This document shows positions 1-32,309 of a stretch of DNA of 33,063 nucleotides, one piece after another. This stretch comes from Jimgerdemannia flammicorona (lineage: Eukaryota). Location of the stretch: contig RBNJ01000324.1 of NCBI GenBank assembly GCA_003990765.1, positions 1 through 33,063 on the forward strand. Reading direction: 5' to 3'. A program made the translations under genes and the position numbers. Numbering within the stretch: the stretch's first letter is position 1; every line of letters starts with the position of its first letter. The notes beneath the pieces were generated by a model. The model saw only the letters and a program-made list of their open reading frames with translations, was not told where the DNA came from and made no database searches.

Positions 1-164
1 AACGAACAAACAAAAAGGCAGATGATGTGGATTCTTCCTGAATCGGCGGATTTCTTGAATAACTCGGATGGCGGTGGATCACTCAAAAATGGCGGACTTC
101 TCTGGCTGACAAAGTTACGTCAAAGACTGCTTCATTTGCACAAGGTTACATTGAGGGACTGGCT

Positions 165-200
165 GCACATCCGCGGGACATGGGTGCGTTAAGAAAAAAG

Positions 201-232
<32 letters not shown>
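165..232 (+). mobile_element. Very short 5'-truncated non-LTR retroposon insertion (26-nt body plus A-rich tail)
   Basis: GCACATCCGCGGGACATGGGTGCGTT followed by a 42-nt A-rich tail (191-232). Flanked by the perfect 12-bp direct repeat GAGGGACTGGCT (153-164, 233-244), the signature of target-primed reverse transcription. Confidence 0.8.
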
Positions 233-236
<4 letters not shown>

Positions 237-470
237 GACTGGCTTCACTGCGAAGGTGCATCTTATTCTAGACTGATTTTGTAAGGCGGACTTAATGGCG
301 GCTTTTCCTTAAGCAGCGGGTTTCTCTTCAAATGGTGGCGAGAAATCCATTCACCGAGACCGTCATACGAAATCGCTGCTACACCCAAGGACCATCCCAA
401 TAAGGAAATTGACTGCTTGATATCCAGATTTGTCTATTATACCACTAAACACCAACATCAGGAATTGTAG

Positions 471-1148: not shown

Positions 1149-1595
1149 TATGACATAGCAGATGCTTAATCTTGGAAGTATGTCAGATTTCTGTATCTTG
1201 AAAACTTGATCTTCTTTGACTCTGCAGAGTCCTCAGAATATAGGGGTAGATAAGTTCAAAGTATATCTACCCACAGACTTACTAGTTTCTTTGCTTTCTC
1301 TCTACTTTAAACTATTTCAATCTGAGGTTTATTTACTCTAAGATACTGGGTTATTTATACAAGTTTATTAGCTATGAGATGGGTGATTAAGTTATAAGTT
1401 ATTTCAAAAGTATTGAAATATTTCAATATTATCAAAATGCTATATTATATTAGATATTTGATTTCAAATCTTTCAAAATGTTTAGAAATTGTTGAAATTG
1501 GGGACTACTAACTATAAGGCTATACTAGTTTGGGACTGGTGGTGATCAAGTGTCTATTCCCTATTTTTTTCTTTTAAATTTAGTTCTATTATATA
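1149..1595 (-). repeat. 3' LTR of element A
   Basis: Aligns with 7388-7835. Contains minus-strand AATAAA (plus TTTATT ~1328) and a TATA-like tract (~1352). Confidence 0.92.
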
Positions 1596-1606
1596 ACTTC
1601 CTCCTA
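1596..1606 (-). promoter_or_regulatory. Polypurine tract of element A
   Basis: Minus-strand AGGAGGAAG immediately before the 3' LTR. Confidence 0.75.
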
Positions 1607-7387: not shown

Positions 7388-7835
7388 TGGAATATAGTAA
7401 ACACATAATCTTAAAAGTATATCAGATTTCTATATCTTGAAAACTTGATCTTCTTTGACTCTATAGAGTCCTCAGAATGCAGGAGTGGGTAAGTTTGAAG
7501 TATATCTACCTACAGGCTTACTAGTTTCTTTACTTTCTCTTTGTTTTGAACTATTTCAATCTGAGGTTTATTTACTCTAAGATACTAGGTTATTTATATA
7601 ATTTTGCTAGCTATGAGATGAATGACTAAGTTATGAGTTATTTTAAAAGTATTGAAACATTTTAATATTGTCAAAATGCTATATTATATTGGATCTTTGA
7701 TTTTGAATTTTTCAAAATATTTAGAAATTATTGAAATCAGGAACTGCTAACTATAAGGCTATGCTAGTTTAGAACTAGTAGTAATTAAGTATCTGTTCTC
7801 TATTTTCTTCTTTCAAATTTGGTTCTACCATCACA
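7388..7835 (-). repeat. 5' LTR of element A
   Basis: Direct repeat of 1149-1595; ends TCACA and is followed by TSD ATAG. Confidence 0.92.
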
Positions 7836-10973: not shown

Positions 10974-11039
10974 TATATATCAGTTCTCTTTTTTTTCTTT
11001 TTTTATAGTCACTTGGACTCTGCCTTTATTACCAGTCTA

Positions 11040-14000
11040 TGAATAAATATACATCATTTCAACCCACTATCCAATCCCCACAGGGGGGCCCCTCCCTACT
11101 TTCTCATGAATGAAAATCACCCTTTCACCAACTACCCCCACTCTCCCCCTACTTTGCCCACAGATTTTCTCCACCAAGTGGCGCCTCCGACCACCCTGCA
11201 TCCCCCAACCCAGCCACCAGCCTGTTAAGGTGTCTTCCATAAGCCTATGCTATTGCAGCAGCTGGTCCCCCAAGCTCTGTCTCCTCCCATCCTCAAAAAC
11301 AAATAGCCAATGACTGGCCAGCCCCACCCAAATAGCCAATGCCCAATCTAACATAAGCCACTCCTTCCCTATCCCCACTCCTTCCCTATCCCCACTACCA
11401 ATCTATCCCTCAAGTCCTCCCATCACCCCCGTACTTCATCACTCCTACCCTATACCCCTAAGCGATCCCCAATTATCAGCCAAAAATCCCCCAACACCTC
11501 ACACTCTCCTAGCCAATGTTCTGGCATCTGTACATAACCCCCCTTCTGCCCTACATTATGGCACTCCTCACAGTCGAAGCAACCCCCTACAACAAGGTGC
11601 CCTGAGCGAAAATTGAGCATAACATTCCTCTGCAGCATGTGCCACCAGACCACCCGGTACTTTGGTGGCAGCCATGCTCTCACTGCAGTGCTCCAGGTCC
11701 AAACACCATGCCAGTTCCACTCTTCACCAATTCCAACTCCTTGCCAACTGCTAGGCCACAGATCCTGGCCTGGTCCCCTCTGGCATTCCATTCTATCACC
11801 AATGTCGAACTCAACTAAAGGAGCACCACCCAGCAGTATACGGTCCCATCTCTACATTGCTGGGTCCCAATCCTCCTCACCTTCATTCCCCTGCCAACGA
11901 ATACCAATATGGTACACTCCTTCTGCAATTCCCCACCAAAATCCTTTATATCGTAGTTGGGCAGTGTTCAGAAGCCCAACCAAGGAGAGGAGATCACTAG
12001 TTGAGCCCCTTGGCAATGCCCGCCTCTCCCATAACTTCTGTAATAGAGGAACCCATCCACCTCCTCTCAACTCCACTGCCCTCTTCAGCCACTATGCTCT
12101 CAAGCAGTGTAACCGTTTTGAGAAGTCAACCAGCTCAAGACTGCCTCTTGCTACTGGTAGGGACAAGGTCTCCCAATTAATTTGACTCTGCCTGCCAGCC
12201 CAAATCCATCCCTTCACCAACTTCATCAATCTCTTCACTACCCAGGCTGAGAAGTCCAGATGATACGCCAGGTACCACAACTTTGGCAGCCAGTAGACAT
12301 TCAAAATTAAGACCCACCCTACCAGAGAAAAATATCTTCCCCCCCAACTCCGCAGAGCCTCCTCCCAGATTCCAATCCTCTGCTCCCACCAAAGCTTAGG
12401 CAGAACTGACCCATAGACTGACAAGTAGATACCTAAGTACCGTACTACTTCACCGGTGGAGACAATTGTTCCTATAACTTCCCCTCCCACCAGGCCATTA
12501 CCGAGCACCATCATCTCACACTTATGCCAATTCAGCTTAGCTCCAGAATACTCCTCATACTACTCCACAGTCCTCTTGAGCTCCTCAACATCAGCAATCG
12601 AACCCAAACCCACCACCATATCATCAGCAAAGGCCCCAACCTTCCATCCTATGCCAAAAACAGAGAGCCCCACTATCCTCTGCCTAATTCGGTCCATAAG
12701 TGGTTCCAGGGAAAGAGCATACAAAATGGGGGACAATGGATCCCCCTGGGCCACCCCCCTTCCCAAGGGGAATGCTACCCCTCTATGTCCATTACACATG
12801 AGTGCAGCCCTACTCCCTTCCAGTAGGCTGACCATTGTTGACTGGAATTGATGTGGTACCCCCATTCTATTCAAAACTTTCTCCAGCCAGACTCTTCACA
12901 CCCAGTCATATACCTTCTTCTGGTCTAAGAAAACTAGATGCCCATCCAGTCCACAGGCCCTCACCCCTTCGATGATGCCATGCACTCAGGCAGTGCCATC
13001 CCTGATGAGCTGACCACCCACAAATCCCCTCTGCTCAACACCCACGACTTGCTGGGCCACCTTCTGTAGTCTCGCCACCACCACCTTAGTTACCAACTTT
13101 CTGTCTATATCTAGCAGCATTATCGGCTGCCAGTTCTTCCAATTCTCCCACCTTCCTTTGTTTTTGTAGAGCAGTGTCACCAGCCCAAGGTCTTGCTCCC
13201 CCACCCACCTTCCTGTCTGTAGAATAAGGTCACACAATGCTGTCATCTCTCCCATCACCTCTGGGACTTCAGCCATTTGCTTCCAAAAGTCCCAGGGCAG
13301 ACCATCCTCCCCAGGTGCTATACTGGATGTTGTCGCGGCAAGAACCTGGTGGATCTCATCCTCCTGTACAGGCATCACCAGGTTCCCTAGCCCTTCAACT
13401 TGTGGTGGGTGCCAATCCTCCAATGTTCATTCAATTGTAGTGGCATCTGCCCCACCCTCCTCCTCACTCCACAATCCACTCCATCTCTCCTTCAGTGATC
13501 CAAGAATGTCCTGTACACCATGCACCAGTACACCATCAGAGTCCAATACCCCTTCCCACTGTTGCTGGACCCGCCTCACCCTAAGGGCCCTTGTAAGAAG
13601 CTTGGAAGGCCTCTCTCCTTCCTCCAGATCCTGCCAGCGAAGACGTGCTGCCAAGCTCTGTACCCTTGCCTCTTCCTCCTCCCGCAGCACCTGTTGAAGT
13701 TCCCCAACCTCCATTTTCGCCCTCATTAATCTCCAATCTTCTTCTCCCTCCAACATCATCAGCCTTGCCCACTCCTCCAGGAGCCTCATCAATCTAGCAG
13801 AGGCCCAGCGCACTCTTTGTTTTTGCTGCTTCCCTGCCTCCTTGCCAGCCTCCTTCCAGTAAATCCTGGCCATTTCCTTCATTCTCATCTACCGAGTCCC
13901 AACTGCAGCCCCTTCCTGCCTCCAGTTCTCCACCCTCAGTTGAATGTCTTTAGCCCACTCATCCCACTGGGTCTTGTCATCTAACAAAGAGGAATTGAGG

Positions 14001-14740
14001 CGCCAATGTCCAGGCCCATCCCCACTTCCCCCAAAGTGCCCCTGTCCCAAAAGCCCCCAGTGATCCAACCATGGACACCATTCCACCTCCAATGATTTCC
14101 AAACATCTAGTCCCCAGCAGCAGGCCATCAAAATCTAGTCGATTCTAGTCCCCAGACCCCCTGCCCAATGTGTATAGACCCTCCTACTCCCCCAGCACTC
14201 TCTTCCAGCATCCAATAGTGCACTTAGTCTTTCTACTTCCTCCCATGCCACCAGCCCTCCACTCCTGCTCTCAGCACCTCATCCTCCATCTGTTCTATCC
14301 AGCAGTATATTCCTAACCATATTGAAATCTCCCCCAAGCACATCCACCCCAACCTCTGCAAGTAATCCACTCTCCTGTAAGCCTTTCACCCAATCTACCC
14401 TCTCACCCCGTACTGCAGGGCAGTAGCAGGAGCCAACCATAACTGGCTCCCAGCCTGTCTGAATCCACTCTCCCCAGACCAGTCTCTCCCTCCAGCACTA
14501 CATATTCTGTATCTCCCCTCTGCCTTTCCTAACCAAAATCCCAACCTTGCCCTTCCAAATCGCCGTACCTCCCCATTCCTTCATCCATTCTAATCTATCA
14601 GAGTCATCTTCGCACCAGACATCCTGCAAGAGGAAGAGATCGGCCTCCAATCCCTTCATCTAAGTAAAAATGTTCCTATGTCGAGAAGTGCCCCATAACC
14701 CATTCATGTTCAAAGAGAAAATGTTGGTTGTACTATTCAT
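11040..14740 (-). pseudogene. LINE D ORF2: AP-endonuclease, reverse transcriptase, C-terminal Cys/His domain; stops and frameshifts
   Basis: APE motifs SLNMNGL, LFLLQD, GGDFN, RID, (S)DH. RT motifs APGEDGLP, QRGF, QGDPLSP and FADD (12620-12631). CFDC...H...C at ~11500-11580. Confidence 0.93.
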
Positions 14741-14773
14741 ATTGATGATATATGTGATGTTGTCAATCAGCCT

Positions 14774-16798
14774 CTACTGCTCTATACTCATCTCCTCCTG
14801 TACCTTGTCCAAATTATGTTCTGCAGCCCCCTCCTCCTCTTCTGCCCTCTGGGCCTCCAATCCAGCCAGTAGCTCATTCATCTCTCCATCGGCCTTCTCC
14901 TCAAACTCCTCCTGGTATTCGATACATGCTTCCTGCCAGAGCTGTAGTCCATGTCACTTATTCCAGCAGTATTCAGCCCTTTCTCCAGCAATAACCACCA
15001 TCTCCTCCTCCCTCTCCTTATCCACCTCATACCCTTCCTCCTCCAGGTATACTACAAGAATCTCTGCCTTCAATGCCTTCATTATGCCATCTCTCTGCAG
15101 TATATCCACCCAATGCTCATCACTCATCACTCGCAAGTCCACTTCTCCCAACTCTTCTGCCACCAGGTTATTCATTATCTGATACATCCAAAGCAAGTTC
15201 CCCACCTCTTTCCCCCCCAGAGTTGCCAGCCTCCCTCTATCCAACATTGTGGTGTCAGCCCCAGCACTTGCAGACTCATCCCATACTTCCGGGACATCCA
15301 CCAGTTCCTCCTCACCAGCTGCCACCACCTGTCCCCCATATGCCACCTCTGGAACTCTGAATTGCACCCTCTGGGCCCCTTGCATTGGCACATCTTCCAC
15401 CACCCTATTCCAGGAAGCCGGGCCATGCCTGATGAGAGGGGTAGGGGTAGGGGAGCCCACCCAGTCCTCCTCCCACACCTCCAGTATACCATCTGCATAC
15501 AGGTCCTTCCCAGCCTTCTTCTCGTCTTCCCCTGCCTCCTTCTTGTCCTTCCCCTCCCCCTCGCCAGCCCAGACACTCGCTTCAGCTCCCCCTGTACCCT
15601 TCACCTTGCTCACATCCCCCAGTGGTCTGCTATCCAGCTTGGCCAGTAACTCCTTCTGCCTCTTACGCCCCTGAGCCCTTTCCCACTGCTCCTTAGTCAC
15701 TCGAATCTGCTTTCCATCCACCACCTCCAAGTGTGTTGCCTCTTCAAAAGCCTCCCAAGTCTTTGCTCGCCTCTCCACAGTACCCCCCAGCTCTTCGAGT
15801 GCTTCCAGTAAATTCTCCTCCTCCTCCTCACTCCCCTTCACCCTTGTCACCTTACACAGGATCACTCCCCAGATCATCACCGAAGGCCAATCCCTTGCCT
15901 TCCCAGTGGCTTCTTTCCCAGCCAGCCAAATTCTCACATCCACGTCACCAGTCCTAAGCGAGGTCCCTTCCCAGACCCTGAACCCGATATCCACCACCTC
16001 GCCATATTCTACCATGAAATCCTCAACTCTCTTCCTTGTCTCCATCGCTGTTACTGTCGGCACTCCTTTCACCAGTAGTTGGACTACCCTGGGGTCCCAC
16101 TTCAGGCACTGCGCCATTGGAATACACACCTCCCCAACCACCAATCCAACCTTCAGCACCTCCTCCAGTGGTACCACCTCCTCAAAACCCACCTCCACTC
16201 TTTCCAGCCCCTTCAAAAACTTCACGGATACTGCACCTGCCACCTGCTTAGCAATGAGCCCCAGTACCATTTTTGCCATCACTGCCAGGCCCCGGAAGCA
16301 CAGTGTGACTGCGAATGCTGAAATCAATTTCTTGAGTAACGGGGCCACCGCCAGACCCATTACACCATCTGCCAAGTCCTCTTGTCTTCTAAGCCTCAGC
16401 CGCTCAGCCTCGCCATCAGCTGTTACATCTGGATTTTTTTCCAGATTGACAGTCCCAACGCCATCAGCAGTCACACCCCCCCCAGCCACTACTCCTGCAG
16501 CTCCACTGCCCCCCCTTCCAAGGGCCGCACCCCCTGGCACCATCGCCTTCTTGGTCTCCTTGCTCTTCCTCAGCCAGCCCTCTAGCCCCGATGCCTGCTG
16601 TCTCCCCTTCACCATCTCCGTGAAGCTTGCCCTCCCAGATCCTGATCCTCCACCACCTCCTCCACCCCTTCCACATCCACCTGCCAGCAGGCCCCTCATA
16701 CCTCCCCCCAGGCCTGGACTCCTCCCCACCTGCTGCCAGTCGAAAGCGCTCAGGCTGCCCTGCCCAGTACGCACCTAAGGTTGCCTGTCGGTTGCCAT
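14774..16798 (-). pseudogene. LINE D ORF1 (675 codons with two internal stops; includes the 606-aa open stretch 14954-16774)
   Basis: ATG at 16798, SFTEMVK motif, a central RRM-like region (VQLLVKGVP...EYGEVVDI...RTGDVDV) and an acidic C-terminus. Homologous to the ORF1 remnants of E and F. Confidence 0.85.
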
Positions 16799-17269
16799 GT
16801 TGTTAGTCTCTTTTTGCCGAAAACAATGTCGAAAGTGTCTTCCAAAGGTTGTGTAACCTGAATGGTACTGGAAAGAGATGTTGTATATATCAGTTCTCAG
16901 TTTGATAGAAGTTAGCCAAGCTTCTAGAGTTTAGTTAGAAATACTAAGGTAACTTAAACATTATTATTAAGAACTCAGAAGAATGAATATAGAGAAGAGA
17001 CTTCTTATATTTTATACTAAACTAAGAGTTGATTTATTTCAAATATAATTAGTGGAGTATTTATACATATTAGCAAACAAACTATTTAGAGAAAGCTAAG
17101 TTACATATATATCTTTTTACAAAAACTAATATATTCAATAATTTTTACTTTACAATATCTAATTTACAAGATACAGCAGGAGTCTAACTTTGATTTAAAA
17201 TAAATTTTATTGAAATCTATCAAGTTTTGATAAAATAGTAAACTAAGATTCAACTAGCTCTGAGCACTT

Positions 17270-18414: not shown

Positions 18415-21400
18415 TTTTTTTTTTTTTTTTTTTTTTTTTTGGTTTTTTTACTTTTTTTTTTTTTTATAGGTACTTAGACTCTCTTATTTATTACTAACTA
18501 TTCTATATTATTAATATAGAATAGCCTCTCCTCACCCAATTTTACAGGAGACTCTCTCTCTCTCTCTATTTCTTCACTCTTTTGAATATACTGACCCTCT
18601 CTCTACTCATTATACTAATCTTCTCCACTAACTCATAGAGTTCTTACCCCTGCTACTACCTATTCAGAAGCTCTAATACTAACTACTCTCACCTTATAGT
18701 TTACTTCATAACTCTTACTCCAAGCTCTAACTTTTGGCTATTATCAAAATCATACTATCAATATTTAGCTAGCCTCACCCAAATAGCCAGAGCCTATCCA
18801 ACTATCAACCACTCATTGCCTATCCCTCTTACTAGCTATATATGAAGAGCAACCCACCTTCTCTCTACCCTCTGCTCAGGCAGTTATACTCCCAGCTAGC
18901 CTCTAATTACTCTCCAAAAGTCCTCCAAAACTACCCACTCTTCTAGCCAATTCAGAAGTCTATACCACTCCACTCTCCTGTCTGACATTATAGCACTCCT
19001 CACAATCAAAGATATCTCCTTCTATCAAATATTCTGACTAATAGTTCAATATTATATTCTGATACAAAAACCTCTACCACATCATCCAGAACTTGGGTAG
19101 AAGCTACTATACTACTATCTTACTCTATAACTAGATATCAGCTTTATCTTATCTCTTATTAATATTCACTATCTATCAGGCCTCTGGTCATAGATCTCTC
19201 TCCTGCTTCTAAAGATACTCCATACTATTCTCAAAACTAAAATCATCTATCAGTACACCCCCTAACAGAAGTCAGTCTCACCTCTATATCTAGAGTTCTC
19301 AGTTCTTCTCCCTCATCATCCTGTCATTAGATGCCAATATAATAGACCCCATCTATTACTCCTCACCAGAAACCCTTATAGTATATTCTATAGCTTCTTT
19401 TAAGTACTATCAAAGATAGTAACTCACCAGATACTCTTCTAGAAGAAAACTATATCTTCTATACTCTCTATATAAGAGGGACTTTACTATGACCCCTCAG
19501 CTTACTAGCTTGCTTCAATCACCATACTCTCATATAGTGTAAGCACTTGGTGAAATCTACAAGATCAAGGTCCCCCTCCCTAGCCCACTGGTAATATTGA
19601 TATCTCCTATCCAATCTGACTCTGTCATTCAGCTCAGATCTAAGTCCTGACTATCTTCAAAAGCCTTTTCATCATCTATGTATACTAGAAAGTCCAGATG
19701 ATAATCCAGATATTATAGCTTAGATAACCAATATTACATTCAATACCATTACTTTTCCCACCAGAGAGATATACTGACCACTCCAGTTCAGAAGCATATT
19801 TTTCCACTCTGTCAGTTTCTGCTCCCACTACTCTCTAGACAGTAGAGAGCCATATATCAAGAAGTAGATCTCTAGATAGCAAAATACCTCTCTTACTAGA
19901 GTAATTATACTAACCATATCCCCTCTCACTATATCTTCTCTCAACACTAGAATCTCACATTTGTACTAGTTGAGCTTAGCTCCAGAGCACTTCTCATACT
20001 ATTTTACTACTCTCTTCAACTCTGCTATATTCTCTACAGAGCACAGCCTAACTACTATATTATCTACAAAGGCTCTCATCTTTTGATTTATACTAAGAAT
20101 GTTCAACTCTCTCACCCTATACTGAATTCTATCCAATAAAGGCTCTAATGAGAAGATATATAAAATGGGTAATAGTAGATCACTCTGTAGCATTTCTCTA
20201 CTTAGGGGGAATGAAGCTTCCCTATAACTATTAACCAGGATAGCCACTTGACTTCTCTTTAACAGACTGACCAAAGACTACTAAAATCTATAAAAACTCC
20301 AATATACTTAAGTACTTCAGCCAGCTATACTCACTAAACCATATTATATATCTTTTTCCTAATCTAGAAACACCAGATAACCATCCACTCCTATAGCCCT
20401 CACTTTCTCAATAATATCATAGATCTATGCTATCCTATCTCTAATTATATAAGCAGTCATTAATAAAGTTTCTTTATTTTTCCCTCAGTACTTGTTAGAC
20501 TATTTTCTGCAATCTGGCCATTAAGATCTTTATAATCAGCTTATGATCTATATTCAGAAGTATAATTAACCTTCAGTTCTTCTACTCCTCCCTTCTCTCT
20601 TATTCTTATACAACAAAGTTACAAGCTCCAGATACTGTTCTTCAATCAATGCTCCAGAGTCTATAACTTTATCATATATCTGCTTCATTATTGTAGCCAA
20701 AATCTAAAGAATCTCTACTCCTTGAACTGATACTCCAAGCTTGCCCAAATGCTACTTAATGATCTGTGCATCCTCTCCACCCTCCTTCTCACTCTACAAT
20801 AGCTCTTAATGTCTACTCAACTGATCTAATATGTCCTGAGTCCTCACCATTAGCTATCCTGACTCATTCAATATTCTATCACATTACTACCTCACTCTCC
20901 TCATTCAAAGAAGTCTCAATAAGAACTTTGTAGGCTATTCCCCCTCCTCTAAGCTCTGCTACTACAGCCAGGCTACTATATCCTTCACTCACAAGTCCTC
21001 TTTCTGTCTCAGTAGACTCTACAGTTTCTCTATCTTAAGCTGGACATACTGAACTCTTTAATTAATTATCTTTCTATTCTCCAGCAGTCTAGCCCATTCT
21101 TTCAACAATCTCTCCAACTGGTACAAAGCCCACTATATATAACCTCTCCTCTAAATACTCTTTACTCTTCTAGCCTCTCTCCAAAAGCATGGAGTCTCAG
21201 ATTTCAACTGATACTATTGATCTCCAATAGCAAGTTCTGTCTCTCACTAACTAAGAACCCTAGAGTTAATGTCTACTATCTAGGTATCCTATAAAGAGGG
21301 CTCATCCAACAATGATATATTCAGATACTAATATCCAAACTCCTCTCTACTTCCTCCAAATCTTTCATATCTCAATAGATCTCAATAATCTGACTATAGA

Positions 21401-23209
21401 TACTATACAGTCTCTAATGATTCTCAGACATTCTTCTCTCAGCACTCAGCAGACAGGATCTAGTTAATCTATGAGCCAAGCTCAGCCATCTAGTATATAT
21501 AAACTCATTGATTATCTCACTCTAATCAGCCTATATTTACTAGAGAGCTAAGTCTTTCAATCTTCTCCTAGTCTTTTATTCTCCTACTCCTTCCAGATAG
21601 CCTTCTCCCACTATTAATTCTGTCCAACCTCTCATTGTAAACCATATTAAAGTTTCCACCCATATAGTTAATTCCCATCTCCACTATAGTATCTAAGTCT
21701 TATAATTCATATATTTACTCTATGTGGGTCCCCCTTTCTACTAGACAGTAATAAGACCTGATAACTACTGGGTCCCAGTCTGGTCTCTATTATGTCTCTC
21801 ACACTACCTTACTATTCTAGTGTCTAATATCTCTAATATTTCTTTTTTCCTTCTGAACTAAAATATCCACTCTACTCTATCATACTACTCATCCCCCCAT
21901 TCTCTCATTCAGTCTAGTATATCTAATTTCTCATCACATCTCACATCTTATAGTAAGAACAGATCAGCATCCAGCTCCCTCAGTTAGTAGAAAATGTTCT
22001 TTTACTATACCTATTGATATTATGAGAAAAAAATTCTAATTATACTATTTATATTAAATAACAATTAAAGAGGAATGTCCCATTCTACAATTTTATGCTC
22101 ACTCTATCACTAGTCATATCCAAGTTTCTCTCAGCTATAAGTTTGATATCTTCTTTCTGTTGAGTATCCAGAGCTATCAATATCTCCAGACAGTCCTCTC
22201 CATCCTGGATCTTCATAGATGTTCTGTATTTCTCACATACTATATATCTGATCTCTTCCTCAGGCCCTATAGATAAGCTATATACTCATTAGTAATCTCC
22301 AACAGTACTGTCTCTCTGTTCCTATTGACCTCATACTCCTTCTTCTCTAGTAAAGTTATCATCAACTTATCTCTCAGCTTATATATCACCTCTTTGCCTT
22401 ATATAATATCTCTTTAGTATATCTCATTGATAATATAGAAATTAATCCCACTTCTAACTACCTTCACCCCTAAGTCTAACTTCTGTCTCCTGATCCCTAG
22501 ACCATCCTGGGCCTCTACTCTCACTGACTTATCTCACTCCTCCTCTGGCACATCCTGTAACTTTTCATCTCTCTCTCTTACTGCTAAGATCTCATACTAG
22601 ATGTGAGCCTTATCTTTTATAACTGTATTCTCAGCTATTATGTTCTACTTAAGAGTCACTCTCCCCTCTAGGTCTCTCTCTTATGATGTCACTATCTCTC
22701 CTGCCCAGGCACTGATTCTCAACTTAGCTATCTTGATATTCTCTATCTCTTCAGAACCTCTCTCCAAACTTACCAACAAATCCTTCTATCACTACCTTCT
22801 CTATACTCTCTCTCAAGTAGCTTAGTCTAGATACACTCTCTTATTATTAATAATCTCCACCACTATCTTAACCTTATACTCTTTTCAAGCTAGCTATCTT
22901 CTTTCTGCTACCTCTACTAAGTTCTTTAGTATCTCTAGTAAGTCCTTCTCCTCCTTAGATAACTTCTTTACTCTCAATATCTTATACTCCACCAGTCTCT
23001 ACTTTAGTATTATCAGTCAATCTCTCTCTTTCCTTATATTCTCTTTCTCTATCAGTTATACCCAAATATCTATATTACCTATCTAGAACTCTATATTCTC
23101 TCAGACCCAGAACCTAATATCTATAACATCTCTATACTTCTTGACTATATTGATGATCAGCTTTCTAGCCTTCTTCTTCTTCACTATAGAAATACATATT
23201 AGTGACTAC
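18415..23209 (-). mobile_element. LINE E, 3' part (poly(A), ORF2 ~18520-22060, C-terminal part of ORF1)
   Basis: T tract 18415-18465. The 3' end ATAGGTACTTAGACTCT resembles D (ATAGTCACTTGGACTCT). ORF 19999-20274 is an RT remnant (AFVDN for AFADD). APE motifs GGNFN and LL*DV are present. Confidence 0.92.
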
Positions 23210-23970
23210 TATAATATGTAGAATGAGGTATGACAAGTGATCACATAACTCAGTGAGTAATGACATCATCATATGATTGAGTACAACATATGATATTTTG
23301 AATGACAAATGAACAATGCAGAAAATGATATAAAAAAATGATATTCAGTTTATCTCTAACAATCGGTACTACAGCAACTATTGCCACAGTAGCTGATTAT
23401 TACCTAGTAATTGAGGTCCTGATCACAAAGTTGTTTTTGTCAAAAACCATCTGACAAAAGTTGTGATCATAAACCTCACTATAGTTATCAAATTAGTCAC
23501 CTCATACTTAGCCAGAAATTGCAGACCAACTTATATAAATACTCTCAGTTTCTATCTAAAATAAACCAGTTTTAGTTCAGTCCTTGATACAAGAATCAAG
23601 TCTCCCCCATACATTCCCCTGAGTCTTAATAATGACATCTAAGTAACTCTAGTGTTTTTGACTAAACTCCAGGAGCCTAGCTAACTTCTACCAGAACTGA
23701 GACCAGTATATAAATCCCCAAAGACTTAAGTAAACCCATTGAATCTGAATTCCAAGGTGAATTCAGTCTGTGCACAGCAAAGAACAAGACTCTTGAAATA
23801 TAGGGCAAACCTTTGAAAGATAAGGTATAGCTGCTACAATTACTTTCAAGCAAGTGTTTCCTCAAACTGAAGGCTTCTTGGTATACATTGTATATTAAGT
23901 TCCTAAGTAATAGTCTTACTTCTCTAATTATATAAAGAGTAAGATAGAGATAGAAGTAAGAGTTATTACA
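23210..23970 (+). repeat. 5' LTR of element C
   Basis: Direct repeat of 31539-32309; TATAAATA at ~23535 and AATAAA at ~23560. Confidence 0.95.
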
Positions 23971-25913: not shown

Positions 25914-26331
25914 AATATCATCAAAGTGTAAAAGATATGGTACAAGGCTACCATCTCCACTAAAGCCTATCCCACCAATATAGAATATAACCTCTATAGT
26001 AGCCAAGACCTCACCATTCCACTGAGTACCAATACTACAGTATAAATAGTAATTGCAATACAAGCCCCCAAAGGTACATACATCTGCCTTGCTGAGTGAA
26101 GCAGCCTAGCCAAAGAGTTCAATATTAGGCTAGGAGGGGGAGTAGTTGATCAAGGATTTATTAGTGAAATCTGTATCATCTTGTAAAATTTTGGAAATAT
26201 CTCATTTGAAGTCAAAGTAGGCCAAAGAATTGCTAAGCAATTATTAAAGAAATCTATCAAGATCTTACCATTGAAGAAGTCTCTGAGCTCTTTCAGACAG
26301 ACTATAGCAAGAAAGGATTTAGATCAACCAA
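25914..26331 (+). pseudogene. dut: dUTPase domain of element C, between gag and protease
   Basis: All five motifs are present: NIEYNL (restored DAGYDL), *SSLA (RSS), GGVVDQGFISEI, GQRIA, and TDYSKKGFRST (restored TDRGxKGFGST). Confidence 0.9.
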
Positions 26332-28699: not shown

Positions 28700-29995
28700 C
28701 TATGACAGAGTGGTTGTACCCAACAATGATACTCTGTGGCTCAAGATCCTACAGGAACTCCATGATACTCCTGCAGCAAGACACTTTGGTTTTGAGAAGA
28801 CCTATAATCTCCTCTCAAGAGAGTTCTACTGACCAAGGATGACCAAGGATATCAAAGACTTTGTGGCCTCATATAAGATATACTAAAGGTACAAAAGTAG
28901 TATTAAGCTACCAGTAGGACTTCTACAACCTCTGCCTATCCTGAGTCATAACTGGGATCAGATTGCAATAGACTTTATTGTTCAGCTCCCCAAGACCAAA
29001 GCAGGATGAGATGCCATTGTGGTATTTGTAGACCGCCTAAGCAAACAAGCCCATTTTGCACCCACCAAGATTACTGCTACAGTACCAGAGATTGCTAAGA
29101 TTTTCCTCAATCTAGTATTCAGACTATATGGTATGCCTAGCACTATTATATCTGACCAAGATGTCAAGTTTACAAGTAACTTCTAGAAGGCATTTTTCTC
29201 TCTCTATGAAATCAAGCTGAAGTTCTCTACTGCCTACTACTTTCAGATGGACAGTCAAACTGAGCAAATCAATAGAACCCTCAAGCAGATGCTTAGCATC
29301 TTCTGCTATTATAAGCAAAATGATTGGGACAAGTATCTAGCCTATGCCAAGTTTGTCTACAACAATAGCCAGCAAACCTCTATAAAGAAGACTCCATTCT
29401 TCCTGAACCACAGTCAATATCTAAAGACCCTGAGTACTATTGCAAAATCAGTAGTCTCAGTAGCCCAATATCTGGCTGAGACTATTTCTGATCTTACCTG
29501 AATGATAAGAGATGCTCTCATAGAAGCATAGGACTATCAGACCAAGTATGCAAACTTGAAGCAAAGAGAAGTCTTCTACAATATTAGTGACATAGTTATG
29601 CTTAGAACAGACTACCTCCACCCAGATACTCTGGCACAACAACCAGCCAAGAAACTCTATACTAGAAGAATTGAACTATACAAGATTGTGGAAAAAGTCA
29701 GGAAAGTTAACTATAAGTTGCAACTTCCTCATAATATCTGAGTATACTCAGTATTCCATATCAGTCAATTGGTGGACAACTATGAGAACCCATTCCCTGA
29801 GCATACAGTTCCACCTCTACCCCCAATTAGGATTAATAATCACAAGGAATTCGAAATTGAGGAAGTACTTGACCATAAGGTCCATAAATACCCCAAAACA
29901 GTTGAGTAGTTTTTCCTCATCAAGTGGAAGGGTTACCCCACCCATGATGCTATCTGGGAAAAAGAAGAGGCTCTAGAGAATGCATGTGAAGCCCT
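28700..29995 (+). pseudogene. Integrase with C-terminal chromodomain, element C
   Basis: HDTPAARHFG, IAIDFIVQLP, ISDQD and DSQTE. Chromodomain EFEIEEVLDH...FLIKWKGYPTHDAIWE at 29847-29990. Confidence 0.95.
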
Positions 29996-30689
29996 CTAGC
30001 ACTATATGGAAACACTCATCCCCCAGCAAAGAAAAGAACTACAGCTCTAAAAATTAAAGCACATAGCAATAGGAGGATACTACATATTCTTATCTGAAAT
30101 ATATAATACTGAACATTGCAGAAAAAAGAAACATCATAGTTAATCAATACAAAAATACTCAGGCAAAGAACAATCTAGCATAGTGTAGCAAAATGCATTT
30201 GAACAACTTCATTTCATGCTATTTATATCATTTCTACTAGATAATGACAGATACTTCATACATATGGAACTTAGGAAAGCTGATAATGTTGAAACCAATC
30301 TAAGCCCATCTATATGACAGATATTATTACTAGAAATTGTCTCAGATTATAAGAAATACTATTTCCAAGAGGTTTGAACCCCCAGCCATAACAATGGGAG
30401 CTCTCACCCTAGACAAGAATTATTAGTTCTCACAAATGTACTAACCAGACAAAAAAAAAGAGGACTAAGATCTGTCAATCCTGTGTAACCACAATTGCAA
30501 GAAGCGATATCTTTGAAATCAGGATTTTCTCATGTGACCAGCATATGCTCAGCTTATAGCAATAGGTCACACATTTTGCTGGAAAGCATGACCAAAAGAA
30601 GGTTACATCAGACAGAGGAATAGGTATAAATACCCAAGGCCAGAATATTCCACAACTCTTATCCCCCTCTCTTTATAAAGAAAAGATAG

Positions 30690-31500
30690 ATAAGAATACC
30701 TGCTACCCACCACCAAACTGTCTGCCATAACCAGCCTTTCCCAAGTCAGGTTGACTACCTCTTTGGACATATCTAAGTTGCTATCCAAGAAAGGAACTGC
30801 CACTCTGAGGCCCTTAATCTCTCCAGCCAGGATCTAGGACATTATGCCCTCAACCACTATGAAGTTATTGAAAGAGCCTACCTTGCTACTAGCTGTCTAG
30901 AGATCTGATATAAATACAAAATTAGCCACCAACTCCTTCAATGAGCAAAGGACCTACCTATTGATCAGATCTCAGACTGGACCCACCTGGACAGGCATGA
31001 GCAAAGACTTGCTAAGAAGGTCCATCAAATCATACACTATGTACTCTTTGTGATCTCCAATCTCAACTATATCCAACTGAAGGATTTTCAGAACCTCTCT
31101 TTCTCTGAGATTGACAAGCTAGAGATCAAGGTAGCCCAAGAAGCCAACTTCTGGATTGCTCTCAAGTCTACTGACTGTGAACCCCACTGGAGCCCCCTTC
31201 TGAATGACAACTCAGACCAATGGCTCCAAGGCCTCTCTGACTTCCTTGAAGGATCACCTATCTGAATGGATATCCCTAGGTATGAGGATCAAGAATCTTA
31301 CTTGGATAGTCCCAACTGTATCAGATAGAGAACCCCTATATCAGCACCCATCTCAATACAAGAACCATTTGCAGACCTCATTGACTTCTCTATCCTAGAT
31401 AGTGAGCCATCAGCAACTACCCCCCCCCCCTACCACTGAAGAAGATAGCAATAATACTGAGGAAGATTCTCCACCTTTCTCTCTTCTGGTTCTCAATTTC
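30690..31500 (+). pseudogene. Extra ORF 3' of the chromodomain in element C (unknown function)
   Basis: Nearly open frame including ORF 31050-31265; core 30900-31088 aligns with 1726-1911 of element A. The start is uncertain. Confidence 0.72.
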
Positions 31501-31525
31501 TGAATCAATAAGGATGTTAATTTCT

Positions 31526-31538: not shown

Positions 31539-32309
31539 TGTAATAGAATGAGACATGACAAGTGATCATGTGATCTGGTGAGTGATGATATCATCATACA
31601 ATCAAGCATAATATATGATATTTTGAATGATGAATGAATAATGCAGAAAATGATATAAAAAAATGATATTCAGTTTATCTCTGACAATCAGCACTACAGC
31701 AACTATTGCTATAGCAGCTGATCATTGTCTAGTAATTGAGATCCTAATTATAAAGTTGTTTTTGTCAAAAACCACTTGACAAAGATCACAATCACAAACC
31801 TCACTATAGTTACAAAATTAGTCACCTCATACTTAGCCAGAAATTGTAGACCTTGTATAAATACCCCCAGTTTCTATCCAAAATAAACCAGTTTTAGTTC
31901 AGTCCTTGATACAAGAATCAAGTCCCCCCCATATACATACATTCCTCTGAGTTTTAGTAATGATATCTAAGTGACTCTAGTGTTTCTGACTAAACTCCAG
32001 GAGCCTAGCTAACTTCTGCCAGAATTGAGACCAGTATATAAATCTCCAAAGACTTAAGTAAACTCATTGAATCTGAATTCCAAGATGAATTCAGTCTATG
32101 CACAGCAAAAAACAAGACTCTTGAAAGATAGGGCAAACCAGAGAAAGACCTTTGAAAGATAAGGCATAGCTGCTATAATTACTTTCAAGTGAGTACTTCC
32201 TCAAACTGAAAACTTCTTGGTATATATTGTATACTAAGTCTCTAAGTAATAGTCTTACTTCTCTAATTATCCAAAGGGTAAGAGAGGGGTAGAAGTGAGA
32301 GTTATTATA
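31539..32309 (+). repeat. 3' LTR of element C
   Basis: Starts TGTAAT, ends ATTATA (from ATTACA), and aligns with 23210-23970. Confidence 0.95.

Follow-up and report, generated by a model that had tools for sequence, protein, structure and literature searches.

Extra genes of LTR retrotransposons are mostly known from plants and animals, and almost none of them has a known function. For plants, Vicient and Casacuberta (2020, PMC7264820) treat additional ORFs placed after pol and before the 3' LTR, in sense or antisense orientation, as well described, mostly without a known function. Among fungi, Novikova et al. (2010, PMC2864245) reported gypsy elements with variable dUTPase positions, for which independent acquisitions were inferred, and also described dUTPase-bearing chromoviruses. 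In Botrytis and Sclerotinia, Boty-like elements have an additional gene, brtn, whose function is unknown and which is placed after pol and before the 3' LTR (Zhao et al. 2011, as cited in PMC8365987 and PMC7264820). In C. elegans, the gypsy-type element Cer1 carries CERV, a novel accessory protein belonging to no family, which is made from a spliced mRNA and is required for genomic RNA to be exported (PMC10309623).

We studied a stretch of 33,063 nucleotides of DNA from Jimgerdemannia flammicorona (the window), where two LTR retrotransposons were found, element A on the minus strand and element C on the plus strand. We hold with good confidence that these are two dead gypsy elements, each with the remains of a third gene (ORF3-A and ORF3-C) between pol and the polypurine tract (PPT), to which we would ascribe an accessory or regulatory role. 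Both ORFs resemble the aORF-3S or env-like ORFs of Athila, Bagy2 and SIRE1 in position, in sense orientation and in their conservation between diverged copies, but env-like ORFs, as described in PMC7264820, are mostly from plants and are named for their transmembrane segments, whereas ORF3-A and ORF3-C have none. They are also like the additional ORF of unknown function ('add. ORF') in fungal gypsy elements with dUTPase, a likeness taken from its description only (PMC2864245). The gene brtn is antisense, whereas ORF3-A and ORF3-C lie on the gag-pol strand, again compared by description only (PMC8365987, PMC7264820), and no named Botrytis protein appeared among the matches of the ORF3-C family. 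CERV, likewise an accessory protein without a family, shows what an ORF of this kind can do (PMC10309623); a sequence relation between it and ORF3 is not expected. In our incomplete coverage of the literature, no described family of sense, non-env ORFs like ORF3 was found in fungal chromoviruses. The present analysis places two unnamed protein families, both of them rare, in the env slot of gypsy elements that bear a dUTPase.

Anatomy and decay of the two gypsy elements

The features of both elements are collected in Table 1. Pfam scans, in which stops were read as X, revealed in element C a dUTPase, an aspartyl protease, RT, RNase H, an integrase zinc domain, a Tf2-type SH3 domain and a chromodomain (residues 1961-2012 of the frame starting at 23970), and in element A a protease, a dUTPase, RT, RNase H and integrase. 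Both are old, mutationally dead Ty3/gypsy elements with gag, protease, dUTPase, RT, RNase H and integrase in each. The position of the dUTPase differs between them, and their best tblastx segment corresponded to RT, with 36% identity over 110 residues. Their LTRs start alike (TGTAATAGAA in C and TATAATAGAA in A) and 39 nt of their LTR TATA regions match at 79%. By these comparisons the two elements are distant relatives.

Table 1 Position of the main features of elements A and C in the window
Feature	Position	Strand	Remarks
Element C 5' LTR	23219-23968	+	87% identity with 31544-32307
Element C chromodomain, last pol Pfam domain	29850-30005	+	PF00385, E 9.4e-09
Spacer between pol and ORF3-C, 690 nt	30006-30695	+	10 stops in the pol frame
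ORF3-C, ~268 codons, degraded	30696-31503	+	between chromodomain end and PPT
Element C polypurine tract AAGAGAGGAAGAA	31526-31538	+	LTR start TGTAATAGAA next
Element C 3' LTR	31544-32307 (repeat match start); likely true start TG at 31539	+	
Likely end of element A pol, TAA TAA	2083-2088	-	right after integrase SH3-like ...LKYY
ORF3-A, degraded	2093 to ~1750	-	match to P0011, an environmental protein
Element A polypurine tract AGGAGGAAG	~1597-1605	-	immediately upstream of LTR repeat (match end 1588)
Element A 3' LTR	1167-1588	-	partner 7406-7827, 86.5% identity over 422 nt

Element A showed no chromodomain: there was no Chromo match at E<=10 in three frames of its 3' stretch. The chromodomain was also rejected as the identity of that stretch, which in the same three frames had no Pfam match at E<=10 and which, aligned with the chromodomain of C, gave a Smith-Waterman score of 30, which 133 of 500 shuffles reached (shuffled scores 27.6 +/- 4.0). 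In the spacer of element C, a different frame presented a sub-threshold Pfam match to DUF7892 at ~30405-30610 (E 0.054).

Substitutions that separate the two LTRs of an element are nearly all transitions (80 of 84 in C, 55 of 57 in A), in both elements mostly in CpA/TpA context, and the observed/expected ratio of CpG was 0.02 in C and 0.00 in A; the mutation spectrum of both elements is RIP-like and, taken with the dUTPase, suggests that the host is probably a fungus. In the ORF3 copies of the window, RIP-like transitions (C-to-T and G-to-A) destroyed the reading frame, and each copy also suffered one frameshift.

Remains of a third gene between pol and the polypurine tract

A preliminary description of this DNA had proposed a sense-strand extra ORF, not env, in the env position of each element, and we could confirm its placement: both ORFs lie between pol and the PPT and have intact homologues outside the window. 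The translations quoted there were also in place, EI*YKYKISHQL...KKVHQIIHYVLFVISNLNYIQLKDF at 30900-31088 in frame mod3=0 of element C, within ORF3-C, and EFQVYFKLR*IL...KRIYKLF*DDELVLAHLWGITLTDF at 1911-1726 on the minus strand of element A, mostly inside ORF3-A.

An unindexed HMMER search of 1.84 billion representatives with the frame-0 translation of 30051-31436 as query yielded four proteins (P0001-P0004) at E<=1e-3. All of them matched query residues 220-439 only, and residues 1-219, on the spacer side, matched nothing among those representatives. The best match was P0001 (214 aa), with 57% identity and an E value of 8e-70. A word-index search with 30783-31436 gave no match, the family having come from the unindexed search. 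P0005-P0010 were added by cluster look-up and profile search (7 proteins among 2432 candidates), and a metagenome scan provided, from 55 pattern matches, one locus (L001), a 1535-nt contig with an intact ORF of 291 codons (291 aa). Scans of viral contig and genome contig collections revealed no relative. The C-type family is small and unnamed, with about 11 environmental sequences only (P0001-P0010 and the L001 ORF); P0001-P0010 come from JGI or ENA environmental assemblies, in contigs of 778-4848 nt, and are unnamed or annotated as 'hypothetical protein'.

The C-type profile, constructed with six environmental proteins and leaving out the window copy, had a single match in the six-frame translation of the window, at 30759-31388 (226 bits, E 1.6e-70), and 17 invariant columns of the family were kept in the window copy (L, E, A, I, S, W, P, L, D, D, L, Q, G, I, P, Y, I). 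The start codon of ORF3-C, aligned to the ATG of L001, is now ATA (30696-30698), and five in-frame stops (X1 to X5) are located at 30774, 30906, 30942, 31263 and 31326. In the family alignment X2 and X5 stand opposite an invariant W, and in the relatives X3 stands opposite R/K/W, X4 opposite R/K/Q and X1 opposite K/T/R. The frame shifts from mod3=0 to mod3=1 within the poly-C run at 31420-31430 and closes with a TGA stop at 31501-31503; the tail after the shift, ...EEDSNN..LVLNF* (frame +1), matches ..DDEDSN..VLNF of L001. On these alignments, ORF3-C is a genuine degraded coding sequence and a real third gene.

In L001 the stop of the ORF directly abuts GGAGGGAGGA followed by TGTAATAAG, that is, a PPT and a C-like LTR start, and the frame is closed upstream, so that the ORF is not a pol extension. 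The link of the C-type family with LTR elements, as read from these flanks, rests on two loci, element C of the window and L001. Over 240 codons the two differ at 80, 55 and 128 sites in codon positions 1, 2 and 3, respectively, with a pN of 0.254, a pS of 0.756 (saturated) and a pN/pS of 0.34, a codon-position pattern and ratio which indicate that the C-type gene was under purifying selection while linked to the element; the family evolved under purifying selection at the protein level. The dead copies of the window are of importance only because they connect the protein families with the elements, and the intact L001 ORF is a concrete, clonable candidate for studying how such elements regulate or protect themselves.

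For element A, a word-index search with the frame 2075-1597 found P0011 (E 4.6e-12), a protein of 115 aa that ends at the edge of a 600-nt contig, from which the A-type ORF has at least 115 codons. In BLASTP alignments the first half of P0011 matched A in frame mod3=2 (33/49 identical, E 1e-23) and the second half matched it in frame mod3=0, the one used in the preliminary description (43/61 identical, E 1e-29), giving 67-70% identity over the window stretch 2075-1750. ORF3-A thus runs in mod3=2 down to ~1932 and then passes by a 1-nt frameshift to mod3=0, a frame join consistent with the loss of one base near 1932. IANN*S of A aligns with MANNWS of P0011, hence the original start of ORF3-A is the ATA at 2093-2091, five bases before the TAA TAA of pol, so that the ORF3 start overlaps the pol stop. 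Stops in ORF3-A stand opposite W, H and three Q of P0011. Coding support reaches ...LAHL at 1750, which is the end of the P0011 contig, and the next in-frame stop is at 1713-1711. By its match with P0011, ORF3-A is likewise a true coding sequence, a real third gene.

Two explanations would deny an element gene in this position. According to one, the stretch is merely non-coding 3' UTR, and the resemblance comes from its AT-rich, transition-biased composition. The window copies alone carry a weak signal, as would then be expected: in C an open run of 106 codons was reached by 79 of 1000 shuffles and a minimum of 4 stops per 218 codons by 43 of 1000, and the block aligned in the preliminary description scores below the shuffled background (see below). 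This explanation is nevertheless next to negligible in probability, given the E values to intact outside proteins (1.6e-70 for C; 1e-23 and 1e-29 for A), the excess of third-position differences and the location of the stops on W, R or Q codons. The other explanation, that ORF3 is a transduced fragment of a host gene, has a basis in the capture of host sequence by LTR elements, of which rare plant copies are mentioned by Vicient and Casacuberta (2020, PMC7264820). We consider it improbable here: all 11 of 11 relatives come from JGI or ENA environmental assemblies with no name beyond 'hypothetical protein'; C and L001, at 57% identity from each other, keep the ORF in the same place and ending at the PPT; and purifying selection acted while the ORF was linked to the element.

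The preliminary description also held that the ORFs do not look like env, and this reading was borne out: neither ORF presented a membrane segment, a signal peptide or a match in Pfam or PDB. The maximum 19-residue Kyte-Doolittle mean was 0.31-0.74 in six intact relatives, and their N-termini were polar or basic. In Pfam, six of the seven relatives scanned (P0001-P0003, P0007, P0011 and the L001 ORF) had no family at E<=1, and P0004 had only a sub-threshold match to ATG5_HBR (E 0.13). The C-type profile had no match at E<=10 among PDB sequences, where the best E value of P0011 was 0.42, not a match. ORF3-A and ORF3-C therefore share no sequence similarity with anything named in Pfam or among PDB sequences, and judged by these features neither of them is env.

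Relationship between the A-type and C-type ORFs

In the preliminary description the two ORFs were presented as homologous. Of this claim, the extra ORF in each element stood and the homology was not established (hhalign probability at most 3.2%). Its account of the aligned segments was accurate: the 25-residue ungapped block has seven identities (K, V, L, I, L, D, F), and the spacing of the two blocks differs by one residue (38 residues in C, 37 in A). The pair of window copies did not hold as evidence, however, because the block has a BLOSUM62 score of 28 and the best local score over 9 frame pairs with dinucleotide shuffles of A had a mean of 39.5 (sd 4.3). The real best A/C score, 51, fell in a different A frame and was reached by 6 of 300 shuffles; with the same local scoring, reversed A gave 47 and eight other pieces of the window gave 33-42. 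The window copies of A and C are no more alike than expected by chance. The alternative alignment with the score of 51 (Smith-Waterman; IER..TT and NLDR motifs, A frame 2) was discarded as out of register with the HMM alignment of P0011.

That ORF3-A and ORF3-C share ancestry, as diverged homologues of one ancestral third gene in a dUTPase-bearing gypsy lineage, has in our judgement somewhat less than an even chance. They have a common slot, a common strand and a similar helical character, and their parent elements are related in RT, LTR starts and LTR TATA regions (see above). Over 73 columns with almost no gaps, the intact P0011 aligned with the C-type profile in the register of the preliminary description, with 7.5 bits in HMMER and aligned pairs such as FQEYFKLGQIL/WQEYEIGNLL and KRIHKLF/KKIHQVF (P0011/C-type profile). 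This score was reached by 4 of 2000 residue shuffles and by none of 160 natural 115-residue control windows (maximum 1.1); hhalign with the A rows picked the same 38 columns (P 0.014), and the summed pairwise Smith-Waterman score, in the same register, was reached by 18 of 1000 shuffles. Reversed P0011, on the other hand, scores 6.8 bits, so helical or compositional likeness could produce the 7.5-bit score. Profile-profile comparison of A and C, the check on which the preliminary description had let its homology stand or fall, was non-significant, with hhalign probabilities of 0.9% (P0011 alone) and 3.2% (with A rows) and P values of 0.014-0.065; when the window row was left out of the family, hhalign gave a score of 17.8, which 11 of 300 column shuffles reached. 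The DNA of A was no better than chance against the family: it scored -0.6 bits with the C-type profile (reached by 72 of 290 shuffles) and 1.2 bits when C was added to the profile (30 of 295). A frameshift-tolerant alignment of A gave 14.5 bits versus 13.5 +/- 1.8 (reached by 45 of 200 shuffles), its transition-aware version was reached by 86 of 200, and the per-member Smith-Waterman scores were reached by 8, 21, 30, 67, 163 or 820 of 1000. Moreover, A has space for only ~160 codons and is devoid of the most conserved half of the C-type core (LEA..VA.EA...W.P.L.D..DQ.LQG).

An even chance can be given to the opposite reading, in which the third genes of A and C are unrelated and were gained independently, as separate accessory genes, in one permissive slot between pol and the PPT. 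No robust sequence link joins ORF3-A with ORF3-C, their lengths differ, and so do the layouts, with a 690-nt spacer after the chromodomain in C and, in A, no chromodomain and a start on the pol stop. The dUTPase is also placed differently in A and C, and the lineage shuffles accessory modules, to judge from the elements described by Novikova et al. (2010, PMC2864245). Against independent gains, the best local alignment fell in one consistent register by three methods and was rarer than most shuffles, and with RT at 36% identity a fast-evolving accessory gene is expected to be near the detection limit. As they stand, the alignments are only suggestive of homology between the A-type and C-type ORFs.

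Possible expression and role of ORF3

Since the C-type family was clearly kept by selection, it does something for the element. The most likely class for ORF3 is that of accessory or regulatory proteins without enzymatic activity, and we judge it rather probable; the preliminary description had put forward a silencing antagonist or a regulator as putative examples. The C-type core has ~215 residues and a near-neutral charge, and the tail that follows it has 54-124 residues with a net charge of -15 to -22. The motif F-x-[DN]-L-I-x-F was present in 8 of 10 tail-bearing rows of the alignment, and a final motif (V/I/T)LN(F/I) in 8 of 9 outside tail rows, six of which then have LL at the C-terminus; the final LN motif of C itself sits in the shifted frame. 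Activation domains, export signals and other docking sites that work through short motifs typically have acidic tails of this kind, studded with large hydrophobic side chains. By way of its acidic, motif-bearing tail ORF3 might thus work as an adaptor, a transactivator or an RNA-export factor, any one of which, taken singly, is unlikely to be the specific role; such guesses from the tail are resemblance, a matter of pattern recognition.

AlphaFold2 models of P0002 and of the L001 core, obtained from 11-row alignments, had low confidence (pLDDT 35.7 and 44.1, respectively); both agree in a predicted helical core ending in a short hairpin. Searches of the ESM Atlas stayed below the recognition threshold and gave unnamed clusters only, with one match (0.89) labelled Mucoromycota, which is a lead only.

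Complex retroviruses have accessory transactivators such as Tas of foamy viruses, which has an internal promoter. The likeness of ORF3 to Tas, by analogy only, consists of the location of the gene shortly before the 3' LTR, a possible TATA box inside the element that repeats the LTR TATA motif, and a tail that is both acidic and hydrophobic; unlike in Tas-type transactivators, no DNA-binding domain was found in ORF3. As a protein, ORF3 recalls regulatory proteins of the Rev, CERV or Tas kind only in its acidic tail and hydrophobic motifs. One could go further and picture ORF3 as the regulatory gene of a 'complex' fungal retrotransposon, expressed from an internal promoter that is a copy of the LTR TATA motif or by env-like splicing. 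Its helical core would bind RNA or DNA of the element, while host machinery that activates transcription or exports from the nucleus would be drawn in by the acidic F-x-D-L-I-x-F / LNFLL tail; the A and C types would be fast-evolving versions of one ancestral gene. We think this whole picture decidedly unlikely.

As for expression, the A-type ORF3 could possibly be made by termination-reinitiation at the overlap of the pol stop and the ORF3 start, as a start codon overlapping the preceding stop recalls that mechanism. For the C-type ORF3, the mRNA would be either subgenomic or spliced. A TATA-like sequence, GGTATAAATACCC, is located at 30623-30635, ~70 nt upstream of the ORF3-C start; a 12-mer of this site, GTATAAATACCC, is found again at 31855, where the 3' LTR has its TATA region, and L001 has TATAAAAG ~80 nt upstream of its ATG. 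These sites upstream of ORF3 in C and L001 would fit an internal promoter and are only a lead, the TATA-like box being a short AT-rich motif in an AT-rich window where GTATAAATA occurs 7 times. Just before the ORF3 starts of both C and L001 there is a pyrimidine-rich run and then AG, which would equally allow env-like splicing to ORF3.

Start and frame of the third genes

ORF3-C and ORF3-A, the degraded third genes lying between pol and PPT in the gypsy-type elements C and A, differ in how their starts are placed. In both element C and L001, an environmental contig with an intact relative of ORF3-C, the start of ORF3 is found about 70-80 nt downstream of a TATA-like motif. The motif in element C may be an internal promoter, since it duplicates a 12-mer from the TATA region of the element's own LTR. 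In element A, the pol stop codons and the original start of ORF3-A share a few bases, and this overlap suggests coupled translation of the two genes. The frameshift of ORF3-C falls in a homopolymer and could be a true indel or else an assembly or sequencing error.

Features of the window and of contig L001
Feature	Position	Strand	Basis or detail
TATA-like motif upstream of ORF3-C	30623-30635	+	sequence motif
12-mer of LTR TATA region, element C	31855-31866	+	same 12-mer as in 30623-30635
TATA-like motif upstream of L001 ORF	L001 296-303		sequence motif
Original ORF3-A start/pol stop overlap	2093-2083	-	ATA GCT AAT AA; TAA TAA in pol frame
ORF3-C frameshift site	31420-31430	+	11-C homopolymer
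LINE-like non-LTR element, 50% GC	11000-17000	-	composition, repeat comparison
AT-rich, CpG-free copy of LINE-like element	18700-23200	-	71-73% identity in repeat families
dUTPase domain, element C	25947-26261	+	PF00692, E 3.7e-15
dUTPase domain, element A	5174-4818	-	PF00692, E 7.5e-12
Inverted repeat, 232 nt, 80% complementary	471-702/9075-9306		repeat comparison

dUTPase position

The dUTPase domain was present in both gypsy elements (Pfam) at different positions. In element C it follows the gag zinc knuckle and precedes the protease; in element A it follows the protease and precedes the RT. A likewise variable dUTPase position is reported for Postia placenta elements (PMC2864245).

Mutation pattern and neighboring repeats

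CpG observed/expected was 0.00-0.02 in elements A and C and in the AT-rich LINE-like copy, and the classical RIP indices of these three were unremarkable (TpA/ApT 0.95-1.17). Transitions made up 80 of the 84 LTR-pair differences in element C and 55 of 57 in element A, the changes being chiefly CpA to TpA and TpG to TpA. The pattern looks like a mixture, RIP-like and CpG-directed.

The LINE-like element, whose RT and endonuclease were recognized in its translation rather than in a Pfam table, showed a very strong strand skew (G 2240 vs C 894 on the coding strand). It adjoins its AT-rich copy, and heavily mutated repeats lie on both sides of the 50% GC element, the less mutated of the two.

The inverted repeat brackets element A plus its surroundings. 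The left end of the window (1-470) presented higher GC, a recurring TCCGCC motif and a 40-nt poly-A/T run at 191-232.
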